64,000 nucleotides of DNA, from the sequence record OP114733, one strand, 5' to 3'. The stretch comes from Escherichia phage vB_EcoM-pEB20. The notes below the pieces were generated by a model that saw only the letters and a list, made by a program, of their open reading frames with translations, ran no database searches and was not told where the DNA came from. This document shows, piece by piece, positions 58,650 through 63,974 of the stretch (the stretch's first letter is position 1; the number at the start of each line of letters is the position of its first letter). Position numbers and translations under genes: made by a program.

Positions 58650-60164
58650 TTATAAATTAATTGTTTTCATTACATAGTTAAATTTCTCATCAGCGTAACG
58701 TTGGATACGATCAATACCGTGTTTTAACAAGTAATTAAGATGAGTATACTTCTTTTTAGTATTTAATGATTTAGGTTTTACACCTGCGTCATCTATGAGA
58801 TCCCAAACTGTAGCAACAGATTTAGAACCATGCTTGCGAAGCACACGACCTACGGTTTGAAGTACGATAATTTTTGATTTAACACCATGGGCAAAAATAA
58901 CATGATGAAGATTCTTGACTGAAATACCAGTAGAGAATACTCCATATGATGCGACAATAATAATGCCTTTACCATTTTCTGCCATGACTTTAAGCGCATT
59001 ACGTGTTTCAGTATCAACTTCACCTGATACGTAATAAACTTTTTCGTATCCAAGCTCTTTAATAGCTTCAAATATTTCTTTACCGTGTGTAACGTGTTTA
59101 AACATTACAAAGGCGTTCTCGTCTTTCTTAGCCAATTTTACTGAAAGTTGAGCAATCCACTTTGTACGTCGTTTTAGTCCTGTAATAATTTTAACTTCTT
59201 CTTGGTATGTTTTACCTTTTAATTTGGTGGCGAATTCGTCTGGATAACGAAGGAAAATACTATTAATCTTAAGCTCAGTTACCTGTCCATCTTCCATTAA
59301 TTTAGACGTGCTAACAGGACGGAAGATTTCGCCGAACATACCTACGTACTGCATTACATTGGCTTTTCCGTCTCTTAATGAGCCAGATAAACCGAATTTA
59401 AACATACAATTATTTAATCCTGCGATGATTGAAGAAATACTTTTGCCTGTTGCTAAGTGGCATTCATCGTTCATCATCATACCGAACTGAGAGAACCATT
59501 CTTTAGGCTGCTTAACTACCGTTTGCCATGTGCCAACAATAATTGGAGCGTCGTTTTTAGCTCTGTCTGCTTTATCAGCGCCACCGCCAATTTTCTTAAT
59601 CATCGAATGACTAAACAAGCGATAATCAACAAAATCGTTAGCCATTTGGGTTGTCAATGCTGTTGTAGGGACGATAATGAGAATTTTACCTTCATAGTTC
59701 TCTAGATAATACCGAGCTAAAAGTGCTTGGATTAGTGATTTACCTGCTGATGTCGGAAGGTTTAAAATTCGACGACGATTAACTAGTCCTTCATATACCG
59801 CGTCTTTTTGATACCAATGTGGTTCGATTTTGGCATTGCCAGAATAAATTTCTTGTTTAGAAAGCCATGCGTCAAAATCTTCCCTGGTAAGGTCTTCGGT
59901 CTCAAAGATTTTAGGGTCAATCCATACAGAATAACTCATATTGTTACAGAACTTTTTTATTTGTCCTACAAGTCCATATGGTAACAAACGGTTGTAATCT
60001 AAAAGTCGAATTCTACCATCCCATTGCCCGTAGCGATATTTTGGGTTAAATTTATACCCGTCAGCTTCAAAGCTAAAAAAGTCACGAAGTTCGTAAAACG
60101 TACTTTCGTCGCATTCAATGCGCACGTGACTAAAATCATAAAAATGTACTTTAATGTCAGTCAT
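58650..60164 (-). CDS. uvsW: UvsW SF2 DNA/RNA helicase
   Basis: 504-aa ORF; Walker A TSAGKS and DECH box (MMNDECHLATG). Confidence 0.9.
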   Translation of the reverse strand: MTDIKVHFYDFSHVRIECDESTFYELRDFFSFEADGYKFNPKYRYGQWDGRIRLLDYNRLLPYGLVGQIKKFCNNMSYSVWIDPKIFETEDLTREDFDAWLSKQEIYSGNAKIEPHWYQKDAVYEGLVNRRRILNLPTSAGKSLIQALLARYYLENYEGKILIIVPTTALTTQMANDFVDYRLFSHSMIKKIGGGADKADRAKNDAPIIVGTWQTVVKQPKEWFSQFGMMMNDECHLATGKSISSIIAGLNNCMFKFGLSGSLRDGKANVMQYVGMFGEIFRPVSTSKLMEDGQVTELKINSIFLRYPDEFATKLKGKTYQEEVKIITGLKRRTKWIAQLSVKLAKKDENAFVMFKHVTHGKEIFEAIKELGYEKVYYVSGEVDTETRNALKVMAENGKGIIIVASYGVFSTGISVKNLHHVIFAHGVKSKIIVLQTVGRVLRKHGSKSVATVWDLIDDAGVKPKSLNTKKKYTHLNYLLKHGIDRIQRYADEKFNYVMKTINL

Positions 60165-60214
60165 GTCAAATTACCATGTAATAAATATAGTTATATTTAT
60201 AATGAGGAAATACC

Positions 60215-60883
60215 ATGATCGATAAAGACTATATTGAAGAGTTACGTGCTCTTTCTGATAAAAAGGAAGCCAAAGCTAAACTGTTCGAATATGCGGAACA
60301 ATTTGGCATTAGTGTTAAGAAAACAAAATCATTCGATAATATTGTTATTGATATCGAAGAAGCTCTTAACGCACTGGCTGATGAACCATTACCTGAAACT
60401 GATGGATTATCTATCACCGATTTAATTACTGCCGCAGATGATGTGGACGGTGTTAATTTCACTAATGAAGAAGTTAAAGAAGAAGCTATTCTGTTGTTTG
60501 ATTCTCCAACAGAACAAGTTGAAGTATTAGAAGTTGTCGAACAAGAAAAAGAATTCGACCATGATAAATTCGAAGAAGCAATTACTCAGGTTGTTGAATC
60601 TGAAAAAGAGCCTGAGCCAGAGGTAAATAAAGAAGTAAAATTTGTTCTGCCTGAAAATTTTAGTCCTACACTCATTAAATTAGGCAAAGGCCCAGGATAT
60701 GTTACTGTTCCTTGGTGGATTTATCAATGGATAGCCGAAACCCCGGATTGGAAATCTCGTCCAACCAGTTTTGTGCACGCTTCTGCTCACCAAACATTAT
60801 TTAGCTTAATTTATTATATTAATCGCGATGGATCAGTTCTAATTCGTGAAACTCGTAATTCTTCTTTCGTAACATTAAAATAA
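60215..60883 (+). CDS. inh: prohead protease inhibitor Inh
   Basis: 222-aa acidic ORF directly upstream of hoc; position and size as T4 inh. Confidence 0.7.
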   Translation: MIDKDYIEELRALSDKKEAKAKLFEYAEQFGISVKKTKSFDNIVIDIEEALNALADEPLPETDGLSITDLITAADDVDGVNFTNEEVKEEAILLFDSPTEQVEVLEVVEQEKEFDHDKFEEAITQVVESEKEPEPEVNKEVKFVLPENFSPTLIKLGKGPGYVTVPWWIYQWIAETPDWKSRPTSFVHASAHQTLFSLIYYINRDGSVLIRETRNSSFVTLK

Positions 60884-60892
60884 GGATAACTT

Positions 60893-62311
60893 ATGGCTTT
60901 TACAGTTGATATAACTCCTAAAACACCTACTGGAGTTATAGATCAGACTCAGCAGTTTACTGCTACTCCCAGTGGTGAAACTGGAGGTGGAACTATTACC
61001 TATGCATGGAGTGTAGACGATGCTCCTCAAGTAGGATCGGCAGAAACTTTTGATTATGTGTTAAAAGGACCCGCTGGAACAAAAACAATTAAAGTTGTTG
61101 CAACAAATACACTTTCTGAAGGAGGCCCGGAAACGGCTGAAGCGACAACAACTATCACAATTCAAAATAAAACTCAGACAACTACGTTGGCAGTAACTCC
61201 TAATAGCCCTGACGCTGGAGTAATTGGAACAGCTATTGAATTTACTGCCGCTTTAGCTTCGCAGCCATCGGGCGCAAACGCTACTTATCAATGGTATGTA
61301 GATGATTCACAGGTTGGTGGAGAAACTAACTCTACATTCAATTACACTCCTGCCGAAAGCGGGGTAAAAAGAATTAAGTGTGTGGCCCAAGTAACCGCAA
61401 CAGATTATGACGCACTAAGCGTTACTTCTAATGAAGTGTCACTGACTGTTAATAAAAAGACACAGACAACTACGTTGGCTGTAACTCCGGCTTCTCCGGC
61501 GGCAGTAGAAATTGGAACAGCAACAACATTCACTGCTAATGTAAGCAATCAACCTGCTAGTGCCGTTATTGCTTATACATGGAAAGTTGATGGTTCTACT
61601 ATTAGTGGTCAAACGCAATCAACCTTTAAATATATACCAACATCTGAAGGAACTAAGTCTATAACTTGTTCTGTCACGGTGACTGCAACCAATTATGATG
61701 ATAAAACAGTAGAATCGTCACCGGTGTCTTTGACCGTAAATAAGAAGACAATGAATCCACAGGTTACGTTGACCCCTCCTTCTATTAATGTTCAGCAAGA
61801 CGCTTCAGCCACATTTACTGCTAATGTCACTGATGCACCACCAGAAGCACAAATTACTTATTCATGGAAGAAAGATTCTTCTCCTGTAGAAGGATCAACT
61901 AACGTGTATACTGTCGATACCTCATCTATCGGAAGTCAAACTATTGAAGTTACTGCAACTGTTACCGCTACTGATTATGATAGCAAAACTATTACAGCAG
62001 AAGGTCAAGTTCAGGTAACCGATAAAGTTGCTCCAAAACCAGAAGGTGAACTACCTTATGTTCATCCTCTTCCGCACCGTACTTCAGCTTATATCTGGTG
62101 TGGTTGGTGGGTTATGGATGAAATCCAAAAAATGACTGAAGAAGGTAAAGATTGGAAAACTGACGACCCGGATAGTAAGTACTACTTGCATCGTTACACG
62201 CTTCAGAAGATGTTGAAAGACTATCCAGAAGTTGATGTTCAAGAATCACGTAACGGATACATCATCCATAAAACTGCTTTGGAAACTGGTATCATCTATA
62301 CATATCCATAA
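60893..62311 (+). CDS. hoc: highly immunogenic outer capsid protein Hoc with four Ig-like domains
   Basis: 472-aa ORF; N-terminus and C-terminal capsid-binding region ...LPYVHPLPHRTSAYIWCGWWVMDEIQKMTEEGKDWKTDDPDSKYYLHRYTLQKM match recalled T4 Hoc; contains a tandem duplicated Ig-like unit. Confidence 0.93.
   Translation: MAFTVDITPKTPTGVIDQTQQFTATPSGETGGGTITYAWSVDDAPQVGSAETFDYVLKGPAGTKTIKVVATNTLSEGGPETAEATTTITIQNKTQTTTLAVTPNSPDAGVIGTAIEFTAALASQPSGANATYQWYVDDSQVGGETNSTFNYTPAESGVKRIKCVAQVTATDYDALSVTSNEVSLTVNKKTQTTTLAVTPASPAAVEIGTATTFTANVSNQPASAVIAYTWKVDGSTISGQTQSTFKYIPTSEGTKSITCSVTVTATNYDDKTVESSPVSLTVNKKTMNPQVTLTPPSINVQQDASATFTANVTDAPPEAQITYSWKKDSSPVEGSTNVYTVDTSSIGSQTIEVTATVTATDYDSKTITAEGQVQVTDKVAPKPEGELPYVHPLPHRTSAYIWCGWWVMDEIQKMTEEGKDWKTDDPDSKYYLHRYTLQKMLKDYPEVDVQESRNGYIIHKTALETGIIYTYP
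61172..61747 (+). repeat. tandem duplication of an Ig-like domain coding unit within hoc (2 x 288 bp, diverged)
   Basis: protein units aa 94-189 and 190-285 both run TQTTTLAVTP...VSLTVNKK with matching internal landmarks. Confidence 0.8.
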
Positions 62312-62317
62312 TCGTAA

Positions 62318-62340
62318 GGGGCCGAAGCCCCTTTCTTCGT
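62318..62340 (+). terminator. hairpin GGGGCCGAAGCCCC + T-rich tract after hoc
   Basis: GC stem with GAAG loop followed by TTTCTTCGTTTTT. Confidence 0.6.
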
Positions 62341-62407
62341 TTTTAAAGCATACAAAACACAACTTGAGATTGATGTATATAATGGCACAAACCAAATAAT
62401 ATGGGAA

Positions 62408-62608
62408 TTGATTATGAGAGCTGAAGTTGAAGTTTATACATTACATGAGGCGGGATTTTCATTCGTAGAAATTGCTCAAAAAATTGGTTTACAACCTAAA
62501 GAAGTTGGATTACTATGGACTAAAGCCGAGACAGCTCGGTCAAAGTTTAAAGCAAAAGAAAAAGTTGTATACCGTAAACGTTTGATTAACAAAAAGGTGA
62601 AGAAATGA
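62408..62608 (+). CDS. hypothetical protein (66 aa)
   Basis: ORF-track ORF. Confidence 0.5.
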   Translation: MIMRAEVEVYTLHEAGFSFVEIAQKIGLQPKEVGLLWTKAETARSKFKAKEKVVYRKRLINKKVKK

Positions 62609-62856
62609 GTTTTGCGCAGGAATTAAGAGAAAGGGCTCTGGCCACTAAAGCCAATTTGTTGAGTGATTTTATTACTAACTTCTCTGTGATGGCAGAGAAA
62701 GCCGCTGACAAAGGCCAGACACAATTCACGTACTATCCATCAAAGAATGATTTAACTATCACCGAACAAGTCGGGCAGTGGTTACGTGATAATGGCTTTC
62801 AGTATAAAATTAATCACGACCAGCGTGATGGACACTGGATAGAAATCAAGTTCTAG
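62605..62856 (+). CDS. hypothetical protein (83 aa)
   Basis: ATGA-coupled ORF. Confidence 0.5.
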   Translation: MSFAQELRERALATKANLLSDFITNFSVMAEKAADKGQTQFTYYPSKNDLTITEQVGQWLRDNGFQYKINHDQRDGHWIEIKF

Positions 62857-62975
62857 TATGCTTTACATTTTTTGATGGTATAATGAATCTAGGTTCTATC
62901 CATTCAAATTAAACATCTGGTCAGAGACAGAGTCTCTGCTAATTATTTTGATATTATTATTTATAATGGTGATTT

Positions 62976-63974
62976 ATGTTTAAGAAATACAGCAGTCTTG
63001 AAAACCACTACAACTCTAAGTTTATTGAAAAACTCTACACTAATGGTTTGACTACTGGTGTTTGGGTAGCACGTGAGAAAATCCATGGGACCAACTTCTC
63101 GTTAATAATTGAACGTGACAACGTCACATGCGCCAAGCGCACAGGCCCTATTCTTCCAGCAGAAGATTTTTATGGTTATGAAATCGTACTCAAGAAGTAT
63201 GATAAAGCTATTAAAGCCGTTCAGGAATTCATGTACACAGCTCGAGCCGTATCATATCAAGTCTTTGGTGAATTCGCTGGTGGTGGAATCCAGAAAGGTG
63301 TTGACTACGGTGAAAAAGATTTTTATGTGTTCGATATCCTTATCAATACAGAAAGTGGTGATAATACGTATTTGACCGATTACGAAATGCAAGATTTCTG
63401 TAATGAATTCGGTTTTAAAATGGCACCAATGCTTGGACGTGGCACATTTGATGCTCTTATCATGATTCCAAACGACCTTGATTCTGTCTTAGCCGCTTAT
63501 AATGCTACTGCGTCAGAAGACCTTGTCGAAGCAAATAATTGCGTATTTGACGCTAATGTTATTGGCGATAATACGGCAGAAGGTTATGTTCTGAAGCCTT
63601 GTTTCCCTAAATGGCTGCCAAACGGTACTCGTGTAGCTATTAAGTGCAAGAACTCTAAATTCAGTGAAAAGAAAAAGTCTGATAAGCCTATTAAAACTCA
63701 GGTTCCATTAACCGAAATTGACAAAAACTTGCTTGATGTTCTAGCTTGTTATGTTACATTAAACCGTGTTAATAATGTGATTTCTAAGATTGGGACTGTA
63801 ACGCCAAAAGATTTTGGCAAAGTGATGGGATTGACTGTTCAAGATATTCTGGAAGAAACTTCTCGTGAAGGTATTGTATTAACATCATCTGATAATCCGA
63901 ATCTTGTTAAGAAAGAATTAGTCCGAATGGTGCAAGATGTTCTGCGTCCTGCATGGATTGAATTAGTATCATAA
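62976..63974 (+). CDS. rnlB: RNA ligase 2
   Basis: 332-aa ORF; [21 protein letters not shown]...[18 protein letters not shown] (ligase KxHG motif) matches recalled T4 Rnl2. Confidence 0.95.

Follow-up and report, generated by a model that had tools for sequence, protein, structure and literature searches.

In phage T4, monomers of the head decoration protein Hoc occupy the centres of gp23 hexamers, and the phage can grow without them (PMC10385173). Across the Hoc family at large, a conserved C-terminal capsid anchor is combined with a variable string of Ig-like domains, and Fokine et al. (2023) counted between 1 and 10 Ig domains in a survey of 650 homologues (PMC10385173); polymorphism between three, four and five domains within close T4/RB69 relatives and the exchange of modules between alleles are not described in that study. 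Three types are closest to the gene considered here, and their layouts can be written as module orders, with D1 and A for the first and second Ig-like domains, L for the last one and C for the C-terminal domain. T4 Hoc (NP_049793, 376 aa) is D1-A-L-C. RB30-type Hocs (AY101183, 472 aa; AR1, wV7, GADU22, CHD94UKE2, pJBK) are D1-A-A'-L-C, and the annotation of the RB30 hoc gene in AY101183 states that an [quoted passage not shown]. RB69-type Hocs (NP_861884, 471 aa; also DalCa) are D1r-B-E-Lr-C.

We analysed hoc in a stretch of 64,000 nucleotides from Escherichia phage vB_EcoM-pEB20 (OP114733), referred to here as the window. Its module order is D1-A-B-L-C, with D1, A, L and C of T4 type and B of RB69 type, so that the protein shares features with each of the three types. 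Like T4 Hoc, it is encoded at the inh/24.3 locus, and D1, A and the last Ig are 85-90% identical to T4 at the amino acid level, with 97% identity in the C-domain; unlike T4 Hoc, it has one Ig more and resides in a genome of a different genus. With RB30-type Hocs it shares the length, the D1-A-x-L-C layout and the sequences of the junctions from A to unit 3 and from unit 3 to L, but RB30-type unit 3 is A-type, 83-88% identical in amino acids to pEB20 unit 2, whereas the core of pEB20 unit 3 is RB69-type and only 57% identical to unit 2. RB69-type Hocs likewise have four Ig domains and a C-domain, their second Ig is the closest to the pEB20 third, and RB69 has the same genome backbone as pEB20. 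However, the D1r, E and Lr modules of RB69-type Hocs are 47-67% identical in amino acids or unrelated to those of pEB20, and B is at position 2 rather than 3.

The hoc locus and its domain layout

The window belongs to a Mosigvirus, as the genes flanking hoc are 97-100% identical to those of RB69 and APCEc01. The gene order inh-hoc-24.3-24.2-rnlB is the same in T4, RB69 and the pEB20 stretch, and the adjacent inh is 98-99% identical to RB69 and APCEc01 and 73% identical to T4 (Table 1). A consensus scan, which matches patterns only, placed a terminator-like hairpin downstream of hoc; in DalCa, a terminator is annotated at the equivalent position relative to hoc. The hoc product matched PHROG 1149, "Hoc-like head decoration", with E = 5e-137, as well as PHROGs 21694, 14282 and 11091, each carrying the same description, and Pfam searches gave PKD (PF00801) at 38.4 bits (cutoff 23.5) with I-set also above cutoff. 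The PHROG match, the gene order shared with T4 and RB69 and the C-terminal domain bear out the identification of the gene as hoc, which had first been made from the letters of the window without database searches. The same protein is already deposited as UYE94979.1 (phages vB_EcoM-pJBB and pEB20; 472/472 residues identical), where its GenBank label is merely "capsid protein", and vB_EcoM-pJBB has been published as a Mosigvirus in a paper that makes no mention of Hoc.

Table 1. Features at the hoc locus of pEB20, with nucleotide positions counted from the first letter of the window
Feature	Position (nt)	Strand	Residues (aa)	Remarks
inh, prohead protease inhibitor gene	60215..60883	+		Directly 5' of hoc; ends 9 nt before hoc ATG
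AAGGA	60882-60886	+		At inh end, upstream of hoc ATG
hoc CDS	60893..62311	+	1-472	472 aa + stop; head outer capsid decoration fibre
Ig-like domain 1 (D1)	60893..61171	+	1-93	T4-type; carries E29, G33
Direct repeat	61161..61248 with 61449-61536	+		Conserved linker and first strand of unit; 88 nt, 73% identity, spacing 288
Ig-like domain 2, module A	61172..61459	+	94-189	T4-type
Ig-like domain 3, extra unit	61460..61747	+	190-285	No T4 counterpart; T4-type start, RB69-type core
RB69-type (B) recombination patch, putative	61478..61744	+		In unit 3; breakpoints about 61477-61493 and about 61729-61744
Ig-like domain 4 (L, last Ig)	61748..62023	+	286-377	T4-type; counterpart of T4 domain 3
C-terminal capsid-binding domain (C)	62024..62308	+	378-472	97% aa identical to T4 Hoc residues 281-376
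Terminator-like hairpin, then T-run	62316..62343	+		Just past hoc stop

A sequence-only reading of the window had proposed that this Hoc, at 472 aa against about 376 aa in T4, gained an Ig-like domain through tandem duplication of a 96-aa unit. Both lengths are exact (T4 Hoc in NC_000866 is 376 aa), and pairwise alignment with T4 Hoc revealed a single in-frame block of 96 aa that is missing from T4, the remainder being about 89% identical. The two units as they had been delimited, residues 94-189 and 190-285 (nt 61172-61747), coincide with the units found here. Units 2 and 3 align without gaps over 55/96 identical amino acids (57%) and 167/288 identical nucleotides (58%), and their local alignment score of 264 corresponds to z = 39 (200 shuffles), compared to z = 9-16 for other Ig pairs within Hoc. 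Thus, alignment at both the protein and the DNA level agrees with the proposed homology of the two units. The motif (Y/F)TW(Y/K)VD given for both of them was slightly off, as unit 2 reads YQWYVD and unit 3 reads YTWKVD. A fourth domain in T4 Hoc would have spoken against a gain, and T4 Hoc has three Ig-like domains plus the C-domain. At the DNA level, the repeat is recognisable only at the starts of units 2 and 3, and Tandem Repeats Finder reported no 288-nt period at this level, the copies being too diverged.

An AlphaFold2 model built with 27 homologues contains four beta-sandwiches, with strands over residues 4-91, 99-187, 194-283 and 290-376, and its pLDDT values are mostly >90 over the Ig domains and about 92-97 over residues 190-285. 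The best PDB matches to this model in Foldseek were four-Ig fragments (Dscam1, Sidekick, ICAM-5 D1-D4), and the three-Ig crystal structure of RB49 Hoc (3shs) was also matched with E = 5e-10. The C-terminal domain was modelled poorly (pLDDT 28-60), so the model is silent on capsid binding. Within this domain, H395, R396, W402 and W406 are conserved and correspond to H299, R300, W306 and W310 of T4 Hoc, residues that touch gp23 or come close to it in the cryo-EM model of T4 (PMC10385173). On the sequence comparisons and the predicted structure, Hoc here is a string of four Ig-like domains followed by a C-terminal sequence for capsid binding that is conserved, in line with the layout read from the sequence beforehand.

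T4-type and RB69-type segments of hoc

The genes around hoc are RB69-like: uvsW, inh, 24.3 and rnlB are 97-100% identical to RB69/APCEc01 and 70-79% identical to T4, GADU22 and DalCa. Compared to T4, inh, 24.3, 24.2 and rnlB have dS values of 1.5-2 or at saturation, and D1, the last Ig and the C-domain of hoc have values of only 0.40-0.45. At the nucleotide level, D1 is 86-91% identical to domain 1 of T4, CHD94UKE2 and APCEc01 and 70% identical to that of RB69, and domain 4 is 84-96% identical to the last Ig of T4-type Hocs and 60% identical to that of RB69. Unit 2 is 90% identical in amino acids to T4 domain 2 and 91% identical in nucleotides to unit 2 of GADU22 and CHD94UKE2. The Mosigvirus APCEc01 has a three-Ig Hoc of T4 type and the Tequatrovirus DalCa one of RB69 type, which indicates that hoc alleles are common to both genera and makes hoc here an island of foreign, mixed ancestry in an RB69-like backbone. 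Transfer between Tequatrovirus and Mosigvirus appears to be much less restricted for hoc than for the adjacent genes.

In DNA, the core of unit 3 shares 87-89% identity with Ig domain 2 of RB69-type Hocs but only about 60% with unit 2 of its own gene, and the comparison of unit 3 with RB69 unit 2 gave 87% nucleotide and 81% amino acid identity. When the 288-nt unit was used as a blastn query, matches covering at least 80% of it came only from RB69-type/DalCa-type phage records (31 records, 86-89% identity), and no phage record exceeded 90% identity. The records covering most of the unit are those of RB69, other Mosigviruses and Tequatroviruses such as DalCa, and in each the matching segment is the second Ig domain. 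A closer match was found in P0009, a 472-aa Hoc from a Logan assembly (locus L005) that is 91% identical to pEB20 Hoc overall and whose unit 3 is 98% identical in nucleotides and 99% in amino acids.

To locate the breakpoints, pEB20 hoc was aligned with four-Ig T4-type genes in register, and with RB69-type genes after a shift by one unit. From 119 nt upstream of unit 3 through its base +18, informative sites were T4-type at 58 positions and RB69-type at 1. Over bases +19 to +285, this relation was reversed, with 78 RB69-type and 10 T4-type sites (90 sites in the core), and downstream of the core 38 sites were T4-type and 1 was RB69-type. Fisher tests on the two breakpoints gave p = 3e-29 and 7e-22. 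The left crossover lies inside the codons for LAVTPASPAA and within the second copy of the direct repeat, and the right crossover lies inside the codons for VSLTVNKK. Judged by these sites, hoc is an inter-allelic mosaic of contiguous blocks that have different nearest relatives and are separated by statistically supported breakpoints.

On the 5' side of the patch, the end of A is followed by KKTQTTTLAV, and the 119 nt upstream together with the first 18 nt of unit 3 match the A-to-A' junction of GADU22, CHD94UKE2 and RB30. This junction is confined to alleles that have at least four Ig domains and a second A-type unit, so the recipient was probably a four-Ig allele of T4 type, as is present in sibling Mosigviruses such as pJBK (P0010). 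The direct repeat at the starts of units 2 and 3 is a likely substrate for out-of-register or module-swapping recombination.

Hoc lengths and module orders among relatives

A search of 5.8 billion sequences was carried out, and its 120 best protein clusters were sorted by length. Hocs of 376-379 aa made up 81 of these clusters, 30 were of 468-472 aa and nine of 567-570 aa, and these three classes correspond to three, four and five Ig units of 96 aa. The phage GenBank collection holds four-Ig T4-type hoc genes in AR1, wV7, Sf21, GADU22 and many others. In evenly spaced rows of a tblastn ranking, about 10-11 of 60 were four-Ig T4-type and about 13 of 60 were three-Ig, rough figures which suggest that four-Ig T4-type genes are about as frequent as three-Ig genes among close relatives. 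Counts of records at a query coverage of at least 80% are unusable for this tally because three-Ig genes reach about 80-82% coverage. These comparisons correct the view of the three-Ig Hoc of T4 as the norm among close relatives, and they remove the novelty that the sequence-only reading had implied for a longer Hoc, since four- and five-Ig Hocs are common and the RB30 repeat was already annotated. Hocs of other genera also vary in length (374 aa in KSKp and 468 aa in ValerieMcCarty03, both Jiaodavirus; 469 aa in the Dhakavirus JS10), with the last Ig as the doubled domain, and the Jiaodavirus and Dhakavirus Ig gains are independent.

For the comparison of module orders, 120 proteins (118 database Hocs plus those of pEB20 and T4) were split into units and clustered. 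Beyond the types named above, the 568-aa Hocs have the order D1-A-A'-A''-L-C, a 567-aa Hoc (P0039) has D1-A-B-E-Lr-C, and the P0009 cluster has the same order as pEB20. Among the 30 Hocs of 468-472 aa (pEB20's included), 29 have a near-copy of domain 2, of A type, as their unit 3. The pEB20 unit 3 falls in a small separate cluster whose only companions are P0009 and unit 3 of P0039, and only 3 proteins out of 120 have a D1-A-B architecture. The left junction between T4-type and RB69-type sequence had no exact match in IMG/VR or in JGI metagenome contigs, which sets a weak upper bound on its frequency. Variable Ig number in Hoc, the RB30 annotation of an extra-domain repeat and this exact protein in GenBank were thus all known already, and what is new is confined to the origin of the extra domain from another allele and across genera, of which we found no description in a literature search outside PMC2909354 and PMC3147960, two classic papers on Hoc.

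Probable origin of the extra domain and expected consequences for the fibre

The history that we favour, with a probability of about 0.72, is an old duplication of domain 2 followed by a later overwriting of the core of the second copy from an RB69-type allele. In the first step, an old tandem duplication of domain 2 would have given rise to D1-A-A'-L-C, a widespread four-Ig allele of T4 type that is carried by RB30, AR1, wV7, GADU22 and pJBK. In the second step, homologous recombination with an RB69-type hoc allele would have overwritten about 265 nt of the A' core, with crossovers in the conserved unit start (TQTTTLAVTPASPAA) and the conserved unit end (VSLTVNKK). Genuine A and A' pairs (RB30, GADU22, CHD94UKE2) differ by dS 1.1-1.6 and dN 0.12-0.13, with dN/dS about 0.1, and by these substitution rates the A/A' duplication is old and both copies are under purifying selection. 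For B of pEB20 and B of RB69, dS is 0.22, dN 0.12 and dN/dS 0.55, with the differences concentrated around residues 222-240. The RB69-type donor is unsampled and B is only 87-89% identical to any RB69-type domain 2, compared to flanks that are 98-100% identical to RB69, so the timing and direction of the exchange are not fixed; as an alternative route, a B patch introduced into a three-Ig allele and followed by unequal crossover would give the same product. Further points against the recombination proposal are the T4-type readings at 10 of the 90 informative core sites, the presence of A beside B with a different junction in P0039, and the fact that the unit tree alone cannot separate A/B orthology from ancient paralogy.

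The explanation offered by the sequence-only reading, an in-lineage tandem duplication of domain 2 with the copies slowly diverging in place, is favoured by the adjacency of the two units, their equal length of 96 aa and their standing as each other's closest match within Hoc (57%, z = 39). Synonymous sites between units 2 and 3 are saturated (dS 2.3, pS 0.71; dN 0.42, dN/dS 0.19), and genuine A/A' tandem duplicates do exist in relatives, as annotated in RB30. However, the unit-3 core matches RB69-type domain 2 (87% vs 61% nt) and is sharply delimited from the T4-type sequence that flanks it on either side, and true duplicates keep about 83-88% amino acid and 78-81% nucleotide identity to the A-type unit 2, with a dN of about 0.12 between copies as opposed to 0.42 here. 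The units of pEB20 are adjacent, in frame and equal in length as in a simple RB30-type tandem duplication, but the core of the second groups with RB69-type domain 2 rather than with its neighbour. Plain in-place divergence is therefore strongly disfavoured by the breakpoint pattern, and we consider it highly improbable. The earlier statement that the copies have diverged is correct, whereas its reading of this divergence as the age of a duplication is not supported, as most of it reflects the split of two Hoc allele lineages.

It is also conceivable, although we regard it as unlikely, that A and B are ancient paralogues from an ancestor D1-A-B-(E)-L, of which T4-type alleles lost B (and E) and RB69-type alleles lost A while pEB20 keeps part of the original string. 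The D1-A-B-E-L string of P0039 has A beside B as this history would predict, A and B form sister clades in the unit tree with E outside, and loss through recombination between 288-nt direct repeats is mechanistically easy. Yet several precise and independent deletions would be required, and the A/B junction of P0039, KKENNSAVAVTP, is that of the RB69 D1-to-B linker, whereas that of pEB20, KKTQTTTLAVTP, is the T4-type A-to-A' linker, a difference that suggests separate recombination events and not common descent of the junction. When T4-type and RB69-type alleles are compared, A and B are each other's best match, and their amino acid identity of 54-59% lies between the values for T4- vs RB69-type D1 (61-67%) and last Ig (43-47%), as would be the case for positional counterparts whose divergence kept pace with that of the alleles; the A-B divergence matches the T4-vs-RB69 divergence of the flanking domains, which also speaks against ancient paralogy. 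The rarity of D1-A-B architectures and of the junction fits poorly with an ancestral string as well, and the presence of just one domain-2-type unit in each of the few outgroups examined (JS10, KSKp, ValerieMcCarty03) leans in the same direction.

Misassembly is a classic problem with repeat units such as those of 288 nt here and with mixtures of T-even phages, and a chimera of reads from a T4-type and an RB69-type phage was considered for this reason. This explanation was rejected because the D1-A-B-L architecture is found in nine distinct proteins from independent sources (NCBI, ENA, Logan), one of them on 22 contigs. The nine share a near-identical unit 3 (93-96/96 residues) despite variable D1 and A, the P0009 contig has the same junctions as pEB20, the reading frame is intact, and B differs from every RB69-type sequence (dS 0.22). 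An artefact of this kind is accordingly very unlikely.

A more general picture, which we put forward tentatively and at somewhat below even odds, is one in which Hoc Ig domains are exchangeable cassettes, the near-invariant unit ends (VSLTVNKK and T-Q-T-T-T-L-A-V-T-P) act as recombination joints, and the resulting fibres of three to five domains are maintained by selection. If this picture is true, in-register and out-of-register crossovers between the alleles of T-even genera would produce the orders D1-A-L, D1-A-A'-L, D1-A-A'-A''-L, D1-A-B-L and D1-A-B-E-L, and the variation would be kept by selection on surface adherence or antibody escape. The long tail fibre adhesin genes of T-even phages are mosaic, with recombination at conserved motifs swapping segments. 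They resemble the hoc case in that variable modules are exchanged between related phages through crossovers in short conserved stretches, and they differ from it in encoding another protein with another function; we know of no role for Hoc in host range.

As a kind, the feature is ordinary and its discovery incremental, but it indicates that hoc alleles, as well as individual Ig modules, are exchanged between genera. In practical terms its value is modest. For the use of Hoc in display or vaccines, fibre length and epitopes differ between otherwise near-identical phages, and Hoc domain content is a variable for studies of phage-mucus adherence.

By analogy with T4, the C-domain should seat one monomer per gp23 hexamer centre with the Ig string pointing outward. 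With the extra domain, the fibre is expected to extend some 4-5 nm beyond the 18 nm of T4, an estimate derived from about 45 Å per domain in the 180 Å four-domain T4 fibre. As the sequence-only reading suggested, a longer fibre might change adherence to mucus or surfaces. The computed pI is 6.0 for unit 3, 4.1-4.4 for the other Ig units and 4.6 for the whole Hoc, so unit 3 would add a differently charged surface to the string. In the domain 1 pocket of the phiPNJ-6 Hoc, E29 and G33 have been reported to be essential for MUC2 binding (PMC11150434). Residues 26-36 of pEB20 D1 read PSGETGGGTIT, with both E29 (Q29 in T4) and G33 present, and by this sequence match pEB20 Hoc carries mucin-pocket residues of the phiPNJ-6 type.

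Ancestry of hoc and divergence of its RB69-type unit

The genes around hoc in the window (uvsW, inh, 24.3 and rnlB) share 97-100% identity with their RB69 and APCEc01 counterparts, marking the surrounding backbone as RB69-like Mosigvirus. When measured against T4, the window hoc modules gave dS values of 0.40-0.45, whereas the flanking genes gave values of 1.5-2 or were saturated, and the hoc segment encoding the capsid-binding C-domain has 93-94% nucleotide identity to all Tequatrovirus and Mosigvirus phages compared. From these sequence comparisons, hoc appears to have been exchanged between genera.

Differences between the B module of window Hoc (the RB69-type version of domain 2, here the third Ig unit) and that of RB69 are clustered in one stretch, which reads PASAVIAYTWKVDGSTISGQTQ in the window versus PSGAAIAYTWKVDGVAVDGQKQ in RB69. 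Across the whole B unit, dN/dS between window and RB69 was 0.55, compared to lower values (0.07-0.28) in the other comparisons. Relaxed or diversifying selection could account for the cluster and the raised dN/dS, as could another small mosaic piece.

Variation in Ig domain number

The five-Ig Hoc P0039, also carried on a Mosigvirus backbone, joins T4-type domains 1 and 2 (D1-A) to RB69-type B-E-Lr, where E is a further Ig domain and Lr the last one. Because the junction between the two types lies at the NKK linker, we interpret P0039 as a second, independent out-of-register recombinant of T4-type and RB69-type alleles. Another class (P0001-P0008, 568-570 aa), found in phages including Escherichia phages UGKSEcP1 and UGKSEcP2, reaches five Ig domains because A-type domain 2 is present three times in tandem, showing that Hocs are polymorphic in how many 96-aa units they carry (3, 4 or 5). 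The fourth Ig domain in Hoc of ValerieMcCarty03 (compared to KSKp) and of JS10 arose from duplication of the last Ig domain rather than domain 2. Hoc has gained domains repeatedly and independently.

Features of the window and compared loci (L-numbers)
Feature	Location	Strand	Remark
RB69-like Mosigvirus backbone around hoc	window 58650-63974		identity of uvsW, inh, 24.3, rnlB
Window B vs RB69 B difference cluster	window 61555-61615		Hoc aa about 222-240
E29-T-G-G-G33, Hoc aa 29-33	window 60977-60991		domain 1
P0039, 567-aa Hoc	L006:3001-4704		Logan SRR17833564 contig; five-Ig chimera
hoc, Dhakavirus JS10	L010:301-1710		469 aa
Second 'Hoc-like head decoration' gene, JS10	L010:1755-2007	-	annotation
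hoc, Jiaodavirus Klebsiella phage ValerieMcCarty03	L011:301-1707		468 aa
hoc, Jiaodavirus Klebsiella phage KSKp	L012:565-1689		374 aa

Neighbouring genes, domain 1 and database labels

The second Hoc-like gene of JS10, directly 3' of hoc on the opposite strand, has no counterpart in the window. In T4, uvsW and inh are separated by the homing endonuclease gene segE, but the window has only a ~50 nt gap there (60165-60214) without segE; T4 also has segD between genes 23 and 24.

E29 and G33 of phiPNJ-6 Hoc have been described as essential to bind MUC2 (PMC11150434). Window Hoc has the same two residues, a match of residues only, whereas T4 Hoc has Q29.

Annotation of hoc is inconsistent, since UYE94979.1, identical to window Hoc, is labeled just 'capsid protein' at NCBI, another 472-aa cluster (P0018) is labeled 'endonuclease [Shigella sonnei]', and several further records use 'capsid and scaffold protein' or 'capsid whiskers protein'.
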